NCBI RefSeq assembly: GCF_003018115.1
Contig: NZ_CP027457.1
Direction: 5' to 3' (one strand)
DNA: 64,000 nucleotides
Source: Escherichia coli
GTDB lineage: Bacteria; Pseudomonadota; Gammaproteobacteria; Enterobacterales; Enterobacteriaceae
Each line of letters starts with the position of its first letter. Position 1 is the first letter of the stretch. Positions 14,663-54,068 of this stretch are shown here, in pieces. The translations under genes were made by a program, and so were the position numbers. The notes beneath the pieces were generated by a model that worked only from the letters and a program-made list of their open reading frames with translations, ran no database searches and was not told the origin of the DNA.

Positions 14663-15139
14663 ATGAAACTCATCAGTAACGATCTGCGCGATGGCGATAA
14701 GTTGCCGCATCGTCATGTCTTTAACGGCATGGGTTACGATGGCGATAATATTTCACCGCATCTGGCGTGGGATGATGTTCCTGCGGGAACGAAAAGTTTT
14801 GTTGTCACCTGCTACGACCCGGATGCGCCAACCGGCTCCGGCTGGTGGCACTGGGTAGTTGTTAATTTACCCGCTGATACCCGCGTATTACCGCAAGGGT
14901 TTGGCTCTGGTCTGGTAGCAATGCCAGACGGCGTTTTGCAGACGCGTACCGATTTTGGTAAAACCGGATACGATGGCGCAGCGCCGCCGAAAGGCGAAAC
15001 CCATCGCTACATTTTTACCGTTCACGCGCTGGATGTAGAGCGTATTGATGTCGATGAAGGAGCCAGCGGCGCGATGGTCGGGTTTAACGTTCATTTCCAC
15101 TCTCTGGCAAGCGCATCGATTACCGCGATGTTTAGTTAA
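14663..15139 (+). CDS. ybhB: PEBP/YbhB family protein
   Basis: Translation MKLISNDLRDGDKLPHRHVFNGMGYDGDNISPHLAWDDVPAGTKSF..., 158 aa, RBS AAAGGAGGG upstream. Confidence 0.88.
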   Translation: MKLISNDLRDGDKLPHRHVFNGMGYDGDNISPHLAWDDVPAGTKSFVVTCYDPDAPTGSGWWHWVVVNLPADTRVLPQGFGSGLVAMPDGVLQTRTDFGKTGYDGAAPPKGETHRYIFTVHALDVERIDVDEGASGAMVGFNVHFHSLASASITAMFS

Positions 15140-15229
15140 TCACTCTGCCAGATGGCGCAATGCTATCTGGTATCACTTAAAGGTATTAAAAACAACTTTT
15201 TGTCTTTTTACCTTCCCGTTTCGCTCAAG

Positions 15230-15244
15230 TTAGTATAAAAAAGC
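15230..15244. repeat. attR: Prophage attachment site core, attR (P-O-B' read on the minus strand)
   Basis: Exact lambda 15-bp core GCTTTTTTATACTAA (as reverse complement) with bacterial B' arm CTTGAGCGAAACG on the ybhB side and lambda-like P arm on the phage side. Confidence 0.85.
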
Positions 15245-15691
15245 TGAATGCGAAACAGCAAACCAAATAATATCAATACGTTACAATGCATTTAGTCTAA
15301 AAAATAGACTGCATAATGCTACAAAACACAACATATCCAGTCACTATGAATCAACTACTTAGATGGTATTAGTGACCTGTAACAGAGCATTAGCGCAAGG
15401 TGATTTTTTGTCTTCTTGCGCTAATTTTTTGTCAACACACTGGGTTAGCTAAATTTACAACCATGCTCAGTATCTCGATAAGCGCAGAGAAATGATGCAG
15501 TGGTGGGCAGACTGGTTTGATAGGAAGGTGTAACCTGAAAGTAGCACACAGCCTTTATTCCGTTTACCAGGCTTTGTGCTATAACTCTTGCATAACATCA
15601 TTATTAACATCAATTTCCATTCAAATTGATTTTATTTAATCTAAATTAACAAAATGTAATCCTCATTTAAACGCATATTTAAAATCATTAT

Positions 15692-16756
15692 CTATTTCAC
15701 AAGCATATTTTTATTATTTCTTTTGAAAACAACATTGGTTAACAACCTTATTACAGGTTTTTCTAAGTAGTAACTAAATATCATTGACGTTATTAAAGCG
15801 AAGATAATCATTGCAGCATAAAGGATAATTGCTCCTGTATAGTCGGTTATTTTATAACCAATGCATCTTAAAAAGGTTGAAAGCACAATGAAAGAAATTG
15901 TATGAATCAAATATATAGAATACGAAGCATCCCCAAGCTTCATAAGTGCTTTGTGAACAAATGATTTTTCATTGAAAGAAATATTTATTGCGCCAAGAAC
16001 ACATAAGAGAGATGGCACCCCTACGTATATAATACGCTCATCACCAACACCCCATACATTAGTCCCAACAATTAAAAATAGACCTACAGCAAAACATAAA
16101 ACTGATAGTTTTATGTTTTGAAGAATCTTTTTCTGATAAACATAGCCGCATATCATACCGAATATGAATTCAAGATGTATCGGGCTGAAAAATAATCTTT
16201 GGATAAAGTTCAAGCTGCCCCAGTTATAAAACAAGAATGTATAAGTACAGAATAGGACGCCAGTGGCAACTCTTCCATATTTACCAAAAATACAGCACAT
16301 TAATGCTAGCGACATATAGAAGTAAACTTCAAAATTTAGTGTCCAACTTATTGCATAAATGGTTTCTGCCTTCCATGATTCAGATGGGTAAAACAAAAAC
16401 ATAGCGCTTGTTACAAACTTCCTGAAAGCATCATCAGGAATCTTGCCAGTTACCATTAAGGCTATAGCATAAAGCAAAAGAGACATCCAGAATGCTGGAG
16501 CTACGCGAATTAATCTTTTAATTATAAAATCACCAATACCACGATCGCTCCTCATGCACTTTCCGATAGTTATGTACATAACCATTCCAGAAATGACGAA
16601 AAATATATCAACTCCGTACTTACCGAACTGTACGAACCCCTGATCAGGGAGAATAAGTCGCGTAGATGGAACGAAGTGGTTTACTGCTACCTTGGCATGG
16701 ATGAACACTACCATCAAGGCCGCAATGCCTCGTAAATACTGAAGCCCAATAATCAT
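15692..16756 (-). CDS. Acyltransferase-3 family membrane protein, probable O-antigen acetyltransferase (seroconversion)
   Basis: 354-aa multi-TM translation MIIGLQYLRGIAALMVVFIHAKV...; located between att and tailspike as in Sf6 oac; AT-rich. Confidence 0.7.
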   Translation of the reverse strand: MIIGLQYLRGIAALMVVFIHAKVAVNHFVPSTRLILPDQGFVQFGKYGVDIFFVISGMVMYITIGKCMRSDRGIGDFIIKRLIRVAPAFWMSLLLYAIALMVTGKIPDDAFRKFVTSAMFLFYPSESWKAETIYAISWTLNFEVYFYMSLALMCCIFGKYGRVATGVLFCTYTFLFYNWGSLNFIQRLFFSPIHLEFIFGMICGYVYQKKILQNIKLSVLCFAVGLFLIVGTNVWGVGDERIIYVGVPSLLCVLGAINISFNEKSFVHKALMKLGDASYSIYLIHTISFIVLSTFLRCIGYKITDYTGAIILYAAMIIFALITSMIFSYYLEKPVIRLLTNVVFKRNNKNMLVK

Positions 16757-16767
16757 GAGGTTCTCCT

Positions 16768-16789
16768 AAAATGACATCCATGTCATTTT
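16768..16789. promoter_or_regulatory. Perfect 22-bp palindrome between the tailspike stop and the acyltransferase start
   Basis: AAAATGACATCCATGTCATTTT; possible terminator/attenuator or operator. Confidence 0.4.
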
Positions 16790-16850
16790 AGCGACTAAAC
16801 CACGATGGTAAAGATAATCATAACAACTATTCAACAGAGTAGTTTTGTGT

Positions 16851-18875
16851 TTAGTAAGCAACAAACGTTCCTGGAGATCCAGTGGCAGTGCATCGCAACC
16901 TGAATGGTGCCGTGGTTGCATTCACCAATACAAAATCCTCCCCCTTTCGCCAATAACCACCAGTTGGTATACCCTGAATCCCATTTTGACTATAACCTAA
17001 GTTGTACGTAATTTCTCTTAGGTATGGACCAATGTTTGTTTGCCAAGTTCCTGTTTCCACCCATACATTACTGTGTCGGAGTGATCTCCCCTGAAATGAA
17101 GCATTTGGTTGAGGAGTTACACCATCAACCATTAGACCAATAAATTTCATGGATCGAAGATAGCTAGGAGCTGAAGGTGAAACAGGAAATTCAAATGGCA
17201 CAGTTATTGTCGTTGTCGATAGATAATTGTTTCTGTCCCAAAATTTTATATTGATATCACCAAGATTAAACCTGTTGACATTTCTTATGTCAGCAATTCT
17301 AGAATCCATTAAAGATGGATTGTAAACAAACAAAAGATCACAATCCCCAATTGTTAAATTGTTCAAGGCTCCTTTATCACACGATAGAAACCTTACTCCC
17401 TCTATTTCTCCTGTTATTCTTCCTATAGACACCTCTTCTGCTAGAGTATTGGCGGACCTAGCATTCATAACAGACTTTGGAGTGTTACCATCTGTACCAC
17501 GAAATATATGTAAATGCTCAATATTTATTCTTGAACAATCAGCATAACTAACCGCACCAAGCCCGGTTCCGCCAACTTCAGCATATAGTATTGTCATGTT
17601 TGCATCTGTTGCACCAGCGATAGCTTCTTCACTTCCATCATAGTGGAAATAATCTATATGTATGCGACCACCTCCGTATATGCCATTGTCTGCACAATTT
17701 TTTAGATACATTCTGTTTACTGTTACTTCGATATCCTGCGCTGAATTAAGTATAGAACAACAGTCTACGGCAGATATTGAATTAATAATGTTATTTTTCG
17801 ACCCGTCAAAAAAATGCAGCAGTTGAGGCATAGAAGCATTGCTGTTACCAGTATTTACACAATTGTATCCTCTTATGACCCCAACAACATTATTGGAACC
17901 CTTGAACTGTATTCCAATTACACCAGTACCTGAACCAGATGGCGCGTAAAGCCCAGTTATATACACTGATTTAAAGGTATTGTTACTACCAGATACCCTG
18001 ATAGGCATGCAAGCTGTTTCATTGGCATCAATATTTAGATTAAAATATCCTTTTTCTTTAGTTATATTTACAATATTTCCATAAGTTGGTGATGTTGTAA
18101 TTAACTTGCCGTCATTAATACAATTAATTGAACGGGCTACAGAGGTTGTTCCTGTAAGTTTAATTGTAATCCCGTCTATCAGCACAGGACACCCAGGATA
18201 AGACATTGCAGAGTTGAATAGTTCTGTTTGGTCAACATCGCAACTATCTACAAGGCCTAAAGATTGTGCCTTAACTTCAGTTTGATATACAATAGCCTTA
18301 AGTCCATTTTCTATATCATGAATATTTGAATTATCTTGTATGCCTGAGCTAGATATTATATATACACAACTGCCACCGTCACCTTTTGAAAAAAAACCCC
18401 TCGTCTCAACAATATCGCCTTCCTTTAAATTCATATCTGATTTCATATCAGATACGGTGTCATATTTTCGACCATAATGTGATGAAAGACCTCCAATAAT
18501 AGCATATCCATTGCTACTTGATAAATCTACCCTTAGCCGGTCAGGGTCATACTTCAGCACATTAGGAAAATAGAACTGCTGTGCACCATACGCATCATAA
18601 ACAGCCATAGAATGGCCTTGCACGGTAACGAATTTGGCAATCTGTCCGTTATATACAGGGTAACCAGCAGCGTTAATGATGATTGGTTGAGAAACAGGAA
18701 CGTGAGAACCGTCTTCATTCTCTACATAAACCTGAATCTGGTTTTCAGGATTTACAGGGTCAGTGTCAATTTTACCGATATAAATTTTGCCATTGGCAAC
18801 CGCTTTAAAAGAACGCGCCATAGTGAAGAGTTGCGAAGGCATGCTTACCACAACATTTGCGGTGATATCTGACAT
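16851..18875 (-). CDS. Tailspike protein with P22 gp9-like N-terminal head-binding domain and divergent receptor-binding domain
   Basis: N-terminus [59 protein letters not shown] closely matches P22 tailspike; remainder unrelated. Confidence 0.85.
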
Positions 18876-18996
18876 TTCATTGCTCCAGACGAATGATATG
18901 ATGCAACCATGATGTGATTGCATACCGAAATGGTACTATTGAGTATTTATCCAGTAGGTTACGATGCCATTCCACCCAACTGGTGAGGCATCAAGG

Positions 18997-19263
18997 ATGT
19001 ACAGCAAATACGACGAGGCGCAGTTTCACTTGAGACTTCCGCATGAACTCCACGCGAAAATTAAGCAGCGTGCGAAGATGAATAACAGGTCGCTGAACTC
19101 AGAGATAATTGCAGCGATTGAAGAATCATTGGCTAAACAAAGCTCTGCACCAGTTTACATTGACGATGCAGAGCGTATGGCAGAACAACAATCCGATATA
19201 GTTAAGAAAATGGTTTTTGAAACGCTTAAGACCATGTATAGCAATAATAAAAAGGAAACATAG
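18997..19263 (+). CDS. mnt: Mnt-like ribbon-helix-helix repressor (immI-type)
   Basis: Translation MYSKYDEAQFHLRLPHELHAKIKQRAKMNNRSLNSEIIAAIEESLAK... resembles P22 Mnt/Arc family. Confidence 0.65.
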   Translation: MYSKYDEAQFHLRLPHELHAKIKQRAKMNNRSLNSEIIAAIEESLAKQSSAPVYIDDAERMAEQQSDIVKKMVFETLKTMYSNNKKET

Positions 19264-19333
19264 AAATCTAGTTTCCGACTAAAATGGCATTGCCTTCATG
19301 ATATCCTGTGAAAAACTAAGGAGAGTTAACCAT

Positions 19334-19819
19334 ATGAAAAAATCACTGTTAATTATCCCACTTCTGCTGGTTGGATGCGCAAAAGTAAGTGACTATCAAG
19401 CAAGTTGCGAACAACGCTATCAAAAGCTTAGCGATATGGCTAATTGCCTTGATGCCAGTGTGAAGAACGACTCACGCATGGCATCAGCACCAACACCTAA
19501 GCTGTATGTCCTTGCTGCAAAGGTGCTCGGGCAAGGTGTCGATGAAGGAAAGATAAGTGACGCACAGGCAAGACTTGAGCTTCAGAATCTTTATGTTCAA
19601 TTACAAAGCCAAGAACAAGCCCAACAAATAGCACAAAGCCAAGCATTCCAGCAGGCTTTATTGAATTATCAGGCTGTAAACACAATGCAAGCGATCGAGC
19701 AAAAAGCGCGCCAGCCTGTTATAACTCAACCTTACCCAACACGCGTTGACACATATACAAACTGCAATTCAGGATTTGGAAACACGGTAACATGCAACAG
19801 TAGCAGTAACATCAGATAA
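19334..19819 (+). CDS. Lipoprotein of unknown function (in the P22 sieA position)
   Basis: Signal peptide plus lipobox MKKSLLIIPLLLVGC; Q-rich mature region. Confidence 0.55.
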   Translation: MKKSLLIIPLLLVGCAKVSDYQASCEQRYQKLSDMANCLDASVKNDSRMASAPTPKLYVLAAKVLGQGVDEGKISDAQARLELQNLYVQLQSQEQAQQIAQSQAFQQALLNYQAVNTMQAIEQKARQPVITQPYPTRVDTYTNCNSGFGNTVTCNSSSNIR

Positions 19820-37453: not shown

Positions 37454-37495
37454 TATTATGCCGTTAATATGTTGCCATCCGTGGCAATCATGCTG

Positions 37496-38119
37496 CTAAC
37501 GTGTGACCGCGTTAAAAATGTTGTCTGCGATTGACTCTTCCTTGTGGCATTGCACCACCAGAGCGTCATACAGCGGCTTAACAGTGCGTGACCAGGTGGG
37601 TTGGGTAAGGTTTGGGATTAGCATCGTCACAGCGCGATATGCGGCGCTTGCTGGCATCCTTGAATAACCGACGCCTTTGCATCTTCCGCACTCTTTCTCG
37701 ACAACTCTCCCCCACTGCTCTGTTTTTGCTATATCAACCGCACGGCCTGTACCGTGGCAATCTCTGCATCTTGCGCCCGGCGTCGCGGCACTACGGCAAT
37801 AATCCGCATAAGCGAATGTTGCGAGCACTTGCAGCACCTTTGCCTTAGTATTTCCTTCAAGCTTTGCCACACCACGGTATTTCCCCGATACCTTGTGTGC
37901 AAATTGCATCAGATAGTTGATAGCCTTTTGTTTGTCGTTCTGGCTGAGTTCGTGCTTACCACAGAATGCAGCCATGCCGAATCCGGCTTGTGATTGCGCC
38001 ATCCCCATAGCAGCCATCACATCAGTACCGGAAAGAGAGTCAGAAGCCGTGGCCCGTGGTGAGTCGCTCATCATCGGGCTTTTTGGCGAATGAAATTTAG
38101 CTACGCTTTCGAGTCTCAT
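37496..38119 (-). CDS. Q: Late gene antiterminator Q (lambda-type)
   Basis: 207-aa translation MRLESVAKFHSPKSPMMSDSPRATASDSLSGTDVMAAMGMAQSQAGF... matches lambda Q. Confidence 0.95.
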   Translation of the reverse strand: MRLESVAKFHSPKSPMMSDSPRATASDSLSGTDVMAAMGMAQSQAGFGMAAFCGKHELSQNDKQKAINYLMQFAHKVSGKYRGVAKLEGNTKAKVLQVLATFAYADYCRSAATPGARCRDCHGTGRAVDIAKTEQWGRVVEKECGRCKGVGYSRMPASAAYRAVTMLIPNLTQPTWSRTVKPLYDALVVQCHKEESIADNIFNAVTR

Positions 38120-52801: not shown

Positions 52802-53020
52802 ATGTACTTGACACTTCAGGAGTGGAACGCACGCCAGCGACGCCCAAGAAGCCTTGAAACAGTTCGTCGATGGGTGCGCGAATGCAGGATATTCCCACCA
52901 CCGGTTAAGGATGGAAGAGAGTATCTGTTCCACGAATCAGCGGTAAAGGTTGACTTAAATCGACCAGTAACAGGTAGCCTTTTGAAGAGGATCAGAAATG
53001 GGAAGAAGGCGAAGTCATGA
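52802..53020 (+). CDS. xis: Excisionase Xis (lambda-type)
   Basis: 72-aa translation MYLTLQEWNARQRRPRSLETVRRWVRECRIFPPPVKDGREYLFHESAVKVDL... matches lambda Xis. Confidence 0.95.
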   Translation: MYLTLQEWNARQRRPRSLETVRRWVRECRIFPPPVKDGREYLFHESAVKVDLNRPVTGSLLKRIRNGKKAKS

Positions 53021-54068
53021 GCGCCGGGATTTACCCCCTAACCTTTATATAAGAAACAATGGATATTACTGCTACAGGGACCCAAGGACGGGTAAAGAGT
53101 TCGGATTAGGCAGAGACAGGAGGATAGCAATCACTGAAGCTATACAGGCCAACATTGAGTTATTTTCAGGACACAAACACAAGCCTCTGACAGCGAGAAT
53201 CAACAGTGATAATTCTGTTACGTTACATTCATGGCTTGATCGCTACGAAAAAATCCTCGCCAGCAGAGGAATCAAGCAGAAGACACTCATAAATTACATG
53301 AGCAAAATTAAAGCAATAAGGAGGGGGCTGCCTGATGTTCCACTTGAAGACATCACCACAAAAGAAATTGCGGCAATGCTCAATGGATACATAGACGAGG
53401 GCAAGGCGGCATCAGCCAAGTTAATCAGATCAACACTGAGCGATGCATTCCGAGAGGCTATAGCTGAAGGCCATATAACAACAAACCCGGTCGCTGCTAC
53501 TCGCGCAGCAAAATCAGAGGTAAGGAGATCAAGGCTTACGGCTGACGAATACCTGAAAATTTATCAAGCAGCAGAATCATCACCATGTTGGTTAAGACTT
53601 GCAATGGAACTGGCTGTTGTTACCGGACAGCGAGTTGGTGATTTATGCGAAATGAAGTGGTCTGATATCGTAGATGGATATCTTTATGTCGAGCAAAGCA
53701 AAACAGGCGTAAAAATTGCCATCCCAACAGCATTGCATGTTGATGCTCTCGGAATATCAATGAAGGAAACACTTGATAAATGCAAAGAGATTCTTGGCGG
53801 AGAAACCATAATTGCATCTACTCGTCGTGAACCGCTTTCATCCGGCACAGTATCAAGGTATTTTATGCGCGCACGAAAAGCATCAGGTCTTTCCTTCGAA
53901 GGGGATCCGCCTACCTTTCACGAGTTGCGCAGTTTGTCTGCAAGACTCTATGAGAAGCAGATAAGCGATAAGTTTGCTCAACATCTTCTCGGGCATAAGT
54001 CGGACACCATGGCATCACAGTATCGTGATGACAGAGGCAGGGAGTGGGACAAAATTGAAATCAAATAA
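52998..54068 (+). CDS. int: Integrase Int (tyrosine recombinase, lambda-type)
   Basis: 356-aa translation MGRRRSHERRDLPPNLYIRNNGYYCYRDPRTGKEFGLGRDRRIAITEAIQANIELF... matches lambda Int. Confidence 0.97.
   Translation: MGRRRSHERRDLPPNLYIRNNGYYCYRDPRTGKEFGLGRDRRIAITEAIQANIELFSGHKHKPLTARINSDNSVTLHSWLDRYEKILASRGIKQKTLINYMSKIKAIRRGLPDVPLEDITTKEIAAMLNGYIDEGKAASAKLIRSTLSDAFREAIAEGHITTNPVAATRAAKSEVRRSRLTADEYLKIYQAAESSPCWLRLAMELAVVTGQRVGDLCEMKWSDIVDGYLYVEQSKTGVKIAIPTALHVDALGISMKETLDKCKEILGGETIIASTRREPLSSGTVSRYFMRARKASGLSFEGDPPTFHELRSLSARLYEKQISDKFAQHLLGHKSDTMASQYRDDRGREWDKIEIK

Follow-up and report, generated by a model that had tools for sequence, protein, structure and literature searches.

The question raised by this locus is what function, if any, is served by a perfect inverted repeat placed immediately upstream of a prophage O-acetyltransferase gene. 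The window, as we call the whole 64,000-nt stretch of Escherichia coli DNA that was analysed, carries the repeat on the minus strand, downstream of a P22-like tailspike gene and ahead of a gene for an Acyl_transf_3 O-acetyltransferase. The tailspike and acyltransferase genes are co-directional:

15692 to 16756, minus strand: acyltransferase gene, 354 aa (Acyl_transf_3; PHROG 'O-acetyltransferase')
16851 to 18923, minus strand: P22-type tailspike gene, longest open reading frame (Head_binding domain)

The gene identities given in the original prediction were all confirmed, namely the Head_binding tailspike, the Acyl_transf_3/PHROG O-acetyltransferase and an Arc and Repressor_Mnt protein encoded at 18964-19263, 2.2 kb from the repeat. 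Since the Head_binding domain begins at residue 17, the tailspike start is probably at 18875 rather than at the start of the longest open reading frame, which begins 16 codons upstream of the conserved MSDITANVV start. A start at 18875 leaves about 90 bp up to the divergent Mnt-like gene at 18964; the arc and ant genes are absent here, unlike in P22 immI. The tailspike stop codon TAA occupies 16851-16853 and is separated by a 94-nt spacer from the acyltransferase gene, whose start codon ATG (16754-16756) follows the 22-mer described below by 11 nt. A consensus scan found no terminator-like site between the tailspike stop and the repeat, and read-through from the tailspike gene into the element is therefore plausible.

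The acyltransferase gene is the last gene before attR of the P22-like prophage, and its module is rich in A+T (27-42% G+C). On the host side, bioF, bioB, bioA and ybhB end at 15139, and the lambda att core GCTTTTTTATACTAA lies at 15230-15244. Lambda-like attP arm sequence was seen at about 15340-15440, the att core and arm adjoining bioA/ybhB, and the open reading frame at 52998-54068 encodes a tyrosine recombinase. This P22-like prophage at att-lambda presumably uses a lambda-type integrase.

The sequence AAAATGACATCCATGTCATTTT was located at 16768-16789 on the plus strand with perfect 10-bp arms. Its two central bases, CC on the plus strand and GG in the sense strand, are not self-complementary, and the 22-mer is therefore an inverted repeat with a 2-nt spacer rather than a strict palindrome. 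The perfect arms were found to reach 12 bp (CTAAAATGACAT and ATGTCATTTTAG) around the 2-nt centre, which defines the following feature:

16766 to 16791, minus strand: inverted repeat (sequence, shuffles and hairpin fold)

The original prediction of a perfect 22-bp palindrome with 10-bp arms was thus right in sequence, position and the perfection of its arms, while the centre is not symmetric and the arms are longer than supposed. Its placing of the repeat about 60 nt after the tailspike stop also stood (the repeat begins 59-61 nt past it), whereas the ribosome-binding site AGGAG abuts the 22-mer instead of lying 10 nt away. The rarity of the repeat was assessed with dinucleotide-preserving shuffles, counting perfect inverted repeats with arms of at least 12 bp and spacers of at most 8. 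Their expected number was 0.07 in 64 kb and 0.002 in an acyltransferase module of 1.26 kb; two such repeats were observed in the window, both within this module. The 12-bp inverted repeat exceeds chance. The original prediction had also suggested looking for more copies of ATGACAT/ATGTCAT, and none beyond chance was present in the window, the half-site likewise occurring at chance frequency.

As a separate observation, CTAAAATGgCAT at 19279-19290 is an 11/12 copy of one arm, which is at chance level. It lies upstream of the open reading frame at 19298-19819 (PHROG 6067, of unknown function, in a sieA-like position), whose Shine-Dalgarno sequence AAGGAG (within 19314-19327) falls in the loop of a 4-bp hairpin and whose real start may be an ATG near 19334.

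As sense-strand RNA, the repeat was predicted to form either an 11-bp stem capped by a UGGA tetraloop or a 10-bp stem capped by the hexaloop AUGGAU. The predicted energy of the hairpin alone was −10.5 kcal/mol (z −6.2), and that of the 57-nt leader was −17.5 kcal/mol (z −3.96), with none of 200 shuffles as stable. Two further features were assigned from the leader fold:

16763 to 16767, minus strand: Shine-Dalgarno sequence AGGAG of the acyltransferase gene (sequence; fold)
16793 to 16801, minus strand: upstream extension of the helix (57-nt fold)

The 12-bp arm ends with the first two bases of AGGAG, and all five bases of AGGAG are paired in the predicted leader helix. In the extension, GGUUU (16797-16801) pairs with GAACC (16759-16763) and UC (16793-16794) pairs with GA (16764-16765), giving a predicted helix of 18 bp overall, with interruptions. 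The probability that the Shine-Dalgarno sequence is unpaired was predicted to be 0.12-0.18 when the 5' arm is present and 0.43-0.47 when transcripts start inside the repeat, a predicted 2.5- to 4-fold difference in accessibility.

The apex of the hairpin proved particularly informative when it was compared to the CsrA/RsmE hairpin consensus:

16774 to 16783, minus strand: apical motif ACAUGGAUGU (sequence against the CsrA/RsmE hairpin consensus)

The consensus for CsrA obtained by SELEX is RUACARGGAUGU (PMC7652899). The GGA of CsrA sites lies in a hairpin loop, mostly a hexaloop, with the flanking AC and GU paired, and the target of RsmE is an ANGGAN hexaloop (PMC7652899). The sense-strand apex here is GAC-AUGGAU-GUC, an ANGGAN hexaloop closed by a C-G pair. 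The motif ACAUGGAUGU matches 9 of the 12 SELEX positions and retains the conserved ACA, GGA and GU, with U in place of R at position 6. We estimate that this sense-strand centre would arise in about 1 of 4096 random palindromes with a 2-nt spacer. A second GGA was found at 16764-16766, inside the Shine-Dalgarno AGGAG and 13 nt centre to centre from the loop GGA. A single CsrA dimer is able to span two sites at separations of 10-63 nt; glgC is an example, with its hairpin site immediately ahead of the site in the Shine-Dalgarno sequence (PMC7652899). The sequence therefore offers both a GGA hairpin loop with ACA...GU and a second candidate site on the Shine-Dalgarno sequence within 10-63 nt. 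No more than 4 contiguous pairs were present in most SELEX hairpins, and a very stable stem may be unfavourable for binding (PMC7652899). Elsewhere in the window, another ANGGAN hexaloop hairpin, ttgccACGGATggcaa, was noted at 37472-37487 on the minus strand, just after the open reading frame at 37496-38119, and ANGGAN hexaloop hairpins with stems of at least 4 bp numbered 9, against 2.2 from shuffles.

The arrangement resembles that of E. coli glgC, in which a GGA hairpin also stands just upstream of the Shine-Dalgarno sequence, a second GGA lies within that sequence and the spacing is in the 10-63 nt range. It differs in that the stem here is 11 bp long and runs into the Shine-Dalgarno sequence, in that the 13-nt spacing is below the reported optimum of at least 18 nt, and in that the gene is prophage cargo with what is so far a candidate site. 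The GGA loop atop a stem between Shine-Dalgarno and anti-Shine-Dalgarno sequences is shared with pslA (RsmA, Pseudomonas aeruginosa) and ymdA (CsrA, E. coli). However, the psl hairpin is unstable without RsmA, whereas the present hairpin is predicted to be stable by itself. At ymdA, CsrA opens the hairpin and activates; the hairpin considered here is a putative CsrA site at which the effect could run in either direction.

The transcripts on which this hairpin could form depend on where they begin. The consensus scan returned a sigma-70-like site with its −10 element inside the 5' arm:

16785 to 16790, minus strand: candidate −10 hexamer TAAAAT (consensus scan)

The candidate −35 element is TTTACC at 16807-16812, with a 16-nt spacer; the 9/12 promoter match is not enriched over shuffled sequence in this region. 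The start predicted about 7 nt downstream of TAAAAT falls in the loop, and the resulting mRNA would lack the 5' arm. If TAAAAT is the gene's own promoter, lysogen transcripts would thus be without the 5' arm and the full hairpin would be found solely on read-through transcripts. In the fold-back inhibition of IS10 and IS50, a 5' arm present only on external transcripts pairs with the ribosome-binding site. The likeness is that the 5' arm in the window is also predicted to pair with the ribosome-binding site and that the candidate promoter would start transcription between the arms. The differences are that the internal promoter is just 9/12 consensus, that the element belongs to a phage moron rather than to an insertion sequence and that its loop has a protein-binding motif. 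The oac genes of Sf6 and Sf101 were compared as well. These are also P22-like phages in which an Acyl_transf_3 O-antigen acetyltransferase gene neighbours the tailspike gene at the att-proximal end; in the Sf6 annotation, oac has a promoter and a terminator of its own. However, their oac converges on the tailspike gene, so that late read-through is antisense, whereas in the window both genes point the same way, with 94 nt between them. A read-through problem thus arises that is peculiar to the co-directional layout and to which the hairpin could be the answer.

The acyltransferase family is small, with 11 proteins at E ≤ 1e-40 in 5.8 billion, and the comparison was made over four lineages (A-D). 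Lineage A comprises E. coli (including O20:H12 and O137:H41) and Citrobacter amalonaticus, at 88% protein identity, and the repeat and Shine-Dalgarno sequence are identical in every copy. Outside the repeat, the spacer has diverged:

16792 to 16850, minus strand: rest of the 94-nt spacer, a decaying relic region (alignment with Citrobacter L003)

The window and the L003 spacer differ at 12 positions, all within the 56 nt of 16795-16850, and at none of the 38 nt of 16757-16794 that hold the repeat and the Shine-Dalgarno sequence (P = 0.0012 if differences were evenly spread). The identity in other stretches of the cassette is likewise 95-97%, and the clean 38 nt are therefore suggestive only.

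Lineage B consists of Enterobacter hormaechei prophages (L012-L016) whose acyltransferase is 64-67% identical and whose gene starts 39 nt past the stop of an unrelated tailspike ending GGGGTTTAG. The spacer holds TAGAATGACA[T/G]GGA[T/C]GTCA, which forms a 4-bp stem with an ANGGAN hexaloop; this core, TGAC-ANGGAN-GTCA, directly follows the tailspike stop codon and varies only at its two N positions. The 39-nt spacer has 6 variable sites, of which 2 are the N positions and none falls on the 8 fixed positions of the motif (P = 0.007). The Shine-Dalgarno sequence is weak in this lineage, its region contains no GGA and hence no second site, and the leaders fold no better than shuffles (z about −1). 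Lineage C (L004/L010) has lost the GGA hairpin and retains TAGAAT. Its upstream gene is divergent, with gtrABC downstream, and it is the sole lineage without a co-directional upstream gene. Lineage D is represented by the E. hormaechei prophage L079, with an acyltransferase 38% identical. The same tailspike end is followed there by TATAATGACAAGGATGTCA, whose loop AAGGAU matches 10 of the 12 SELEX positions. In L079 the hairpin is 380 nt from the acyltransferase start, at which distance it cannot act on the Shine-Dalgarno sequence of that gene. In L080, also with a 38%-identical acyltransferase, the tailspike is followed by an ordinary G+C-rich terminator and no GGA hairpin.

The loops found among the lineages were AUGGAU, AUGGAC, AGGGAU, AGGGAC and AAGGAU. 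RNAalifold over all lineages returned only 4 conserved pairs, those of the 4-bp core, with no covariation, and the 12-bp arms occur in the E. coli/Citrobacter lineage A only. The pattern TAnAAT is kept across all four lineages (as TAAAAT, TAGAAT and TATAAT), the hairpin-less one included. These alignments point to the small hairpin TGAC-ANGGAN-GTCA as the conserved, ancestral functional unit, found at the tailspike/acyltransferase junction in several lineages of enterobacterial prophages. Its conserved A-GGA centre is asymmetric, which points to a function at the RNA level over a symmetric DNA operator.

The GGTTTAG of the window spacer was recognised as a relic of the last codons of the lineage-B tailspike with its TAG stop (16795-16797). 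The stretch 16795-16850 thus contains a decayed remnant of the 3' end of an unrelated tailspike family, intact in L012-L016 and L079, and forms a mosaic junction; no homology was found between the window tailspike and the Enterobacter tailspikes beyond this short C-terminal relic. The cassette (15692-18220) joins the receptor-binding part of the tailspike (82% identical over aa 130-690) to the acyltransferase gene across the 94-nt spacer. It is common to Citrobacter amalonaticus prophages (L003, L017-L021), which lie beside lepA and have a different tailspike N-terminal part (Tail_spike_N). Among other complete E. coli genomes, 1 of 5426 carried the module, namely O20:H12 (L001, NZ_CP062855), at 98-99% identity, which makes it uninformative about the repeat. 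There the module lies beside dacD and not at att-lambda, and the acyltransferase gene is annotated as a pseudogene with an internal stop. A scan for the acyltransferase in one genome per species gave relatives of only 24-28% identity with unalignable upstream regions, and searches for more tailspikes ending ...AFVAGV*, by exact 18-mer, by peptide among viral contigs, by blastn among phage genomes and by protein, returned only one known contig or fragments.

The same hairpin was also met outside this gene pair. Among 2.9 million viral contigs, the 22-mer turned up in the Citrobacter-type cassette alone. In metagenomes it was found at 51 loci, which represent 39 distinct contexts. The GG/CC centre is present in 19 of the 39, against an expected one in eight (P = 4e-8), and in 12 of these 19 the pairing extends by 4-7 more base pairs that differ between loci. 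Several of the metagenome copies are TD-2 RNAs of Rfam and one is a TwoAYGGAY RNA; the consensus structures of both families have the apex CAUGGAUG. TwoAYGGAY is a predicted CsrA-binding RNA (PMC4333381). The apical module gaCAUGGAUGuc on a stem is common to TwoAYGGAY (RF01731), TD-2 (RF03162) and the window hairpin, and some members contain the identical 22-mer. Those families, however, are multi-hairpin non-coding RNAs of 98 and 168 positions, respectively, with which the window shares one hairpin module only. A cmscan of window positions 15000-19500 at E ≤ 10 reported neither family and just two spurious snoRNA hits.

Two metagenome regions deserve separate mention. At L047 6890-7060 and L027 10780-10835, both intergenic, 2-3 hairpins centred on CATGGATG lie on one strand, one of them the exact 22-mer, with no Rfam family at gathering score; these regions may be unannotated CsrA-sponge-like RNAs. 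The TD-2 RNAs at L035, L040, L061, L063 and L074 have two AYGGAY-loop hairpins, with five copies on the one contig of L035, and since these loops fit the CsrA consensus, TD-2 may also bind CsrA.

The explanation we favour, tentatively and at a little under an even chance, is that the repeat acts as an RNA hairpin in the O-acetyltransferase leader, in which a CsrA-type loop and occlusion of the Shine-Dalgarno sequence gate translation, chiefly on read-through transcripts. Judged from sequence, this is probably an ordinary type of translational control in a new place. Transcripts from the tailspike gene, or from any promoter upstream of 16791, would fold in the leader with the whole AGGAG paired. 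Host CsrA would bind the loop and either bridge to the occluded Shine-Dalgarno sequence or lock it, and read-through late transcripts would be poorly translated. With TAnAAT as the gene's own −10 element, lysogen transcripts would start inside the repeat, lack the 5' arm and be translated more freely. The perfect 12-bp arms would be an E. coli/Citrobacter elaboration of the small ancestral hairpin. The data that speak for such a gate are the leader fold (z −3.96), the pairing of the Shine-Dalgarno sequence, the ANGGAN motif, the dual-site spacing, the confinement of variation to the N positions, the clean 38 nt, the loss in lineage C and the recurrence of the hairpin elsewhere. Counting against it are a stem far longer than that of typical CsrA ligands, the U at position 6, a lineage B with neither a GGA in the Shine-Dalgarno region nor a better-than-shuffle fold, the lack of covariation, the distance in L079, the 95-97% identity of the window and L003 elsewhere in the cassette, and a comparison of no more than 4 lineages. 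Furthermore, if TAAAAT were the only promoter used, the hairpin would never be transcribed whole in the lysogen, which also argues against the gate. The proposal of the original prediction that the element uncouples the acyltransferase from late transcription fits this evidence as a general idea, with any such effect placed at translation, through Shine-Dalgarno pairing and the GGA loop, and not at transcription.

A wider form of this proposal, in which the junction element recruits CsrA such that the enzyme is made from own-promoter lysogen mRNA and silenced on late read-through mRNA, and in which the element travels with the tailspike module as a 'serotype cassette', is regarded as speculative and, taken as a whole, unlikely.

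Of the alternatives, the one that survives best is that the arms have no function of their own and were produced when template switching perfected an imperfect quasi-palindrome in AT-rich DNA, starting from a cassette-borne junction relic. The second perfect inverted repeat of the module bears directly on this. It lies at 16090-16120 inside the acyltransferase coding sequence (peptide QNIKLSVLC), has 14-bp arms and a 3-nt loop (−12.6 kcal/mol as RNA) and is perfect in the E. coli lineage only. In the Citrobacter copy the peptide is the same, but 6-7 differences, most of them synonymous, break the repeat, and in O20:H12 the 3-nt loop is flipped (ATC to GAT, Ser to Ile), a hairpin-loop inversion. 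Loop inversion is a known signature of hairpin-mediated template switching, that is, quasi-palindrome mutagenesis. The other lineages, too, lack the long arms of the upstream repeat, and its changes relative to relatives lie mostly in the 3' arm, as though copied from the 5' arm. The upstream arms may therefore have been perfected by template switching like those of the coding repeat. However, the upstream repeat is identical in E. coli and Citrobacter while the adjoining 56 nt carry 12 differences, and the ANGGAN core is conserved far past lineage A and varies only at the N positions; this identity and the much greater age of the core speak for maintenance of the core at least. The arms could, in addition, have arisen neutrally and still have a present function. 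We consider the by-product explanation improbable on balance, though one to be taken seriously.

Rather less probable is that structure alone suffices, with the hairpin sequestering the Shine-Dalgarno sequence on read-through transcripts while own-promoter transcripts escape, after the manner of IS10 and IS50, and with the GGA incidental. Full pairing of the Shine-Dalgarno sequence in the predicted helix and the 2.5- to 4-fold predicted difference in accessibility speak for such a mechanism, as does a promoter-like −10 element inside the 5' arm with TAnAAT in every lineage. The hairpin is also missing where there is no co-directional gene upstream. This explanation leaves unaccounted for, however, the invariant loop A-GGA beside varying N positions and the ancestral form, with a mere 4-bp stem that does not touch the Shine-Dalgarno sequence. 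The promoter match of 9/12, no better than shuffled sequence, and the modest predicted gain in accessibility count against it too.

A DNA operator over the acyltransferase −10 element and start, with a dimeric repressor as its ligand (the Mnt-like protein, the repressor of the prophage or a host factor), was judged quite improbable. The symmetric 26-bp site does span the promoter-like −10 element and the predicted start, and a gene for a Mnt-like ribbon-helix-helix protein lies 2.2 kb away. The site is nevertheless single: no related site with up to 3 mismatches exists in the 64 kb, none lies beside mnt, and the half-site is at chance. The suggestion that the repeat is an operator of the Mnt-like protein gained no support from the same search, which covered the 40-bp mnt/tailspike control region, and the asymmetry of the conserved centre would not be expected of a symmetric operator. 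The interval 18880-18964 contained only an unrelated 9-bp imperfect repeat and nothing of the Mnt/Arc operator type. Moreover, the 22-mer is confined to the same cassette in the 2.9 million viral contigs, relatives keep the asymmetric A-GGA while losing the symmetry of the inner arms, and no gene for a regulator accompanies the cassette.

An intrinsic terminator or attenuator ending late or tailspike transcription before the acyltransferase gene, the other mechanism put forward originally, would explain a stable hairpin after the last late gene with an A-run and a U-run flanking its core, loosely like bidirectional terminators, but is highly improbable, as the stem has 2 G-C pairs out of 11 and is not the G+C-rich stem with following U tract of a terminator, the U run is base-paired within the stem, GAGAACC comes after it, only 5 bp of the core stem remain without the A-U run, and the terminator consensus scan did not call the repeat. 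In P22-like phages, moreover, antitermination operates on late transcription, which would pass through a weak signal.

Returning to the translational gate, its interest lies in the gene that it would control. O-antigen acetylation alters serotype, phage susceptibility and immune recognition. If CsrA gates the gene, O-antigen acetylation by the prophage would depend on the Csr state of the host, and if the wider reading of the junction element is true, serotype conversion would be coupled to both the phage life cycle and the host Csr state. CsrA is best known for chromosomal genes and is reported also to repress the lysis gene of plasmid ColE7; no report on CsrA control of phage lysogenic-conversion genes, or on this cassette, was found in literature searches. 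Even if the element is inert, the two perfect repeats of the module illustrate cleanly, in a natural setting, how a quasi-palindrome is perfected and a hairpin loop inverted. The element also marks a recombination junction, at which receptor-binding domain, tailspike relic, hairpin and acyltransferase move together between E. coli P22-like and Citrobacter prophages, and the cassette is thereby useful for learning how receptor specificity and receptor modification are co-inherited.
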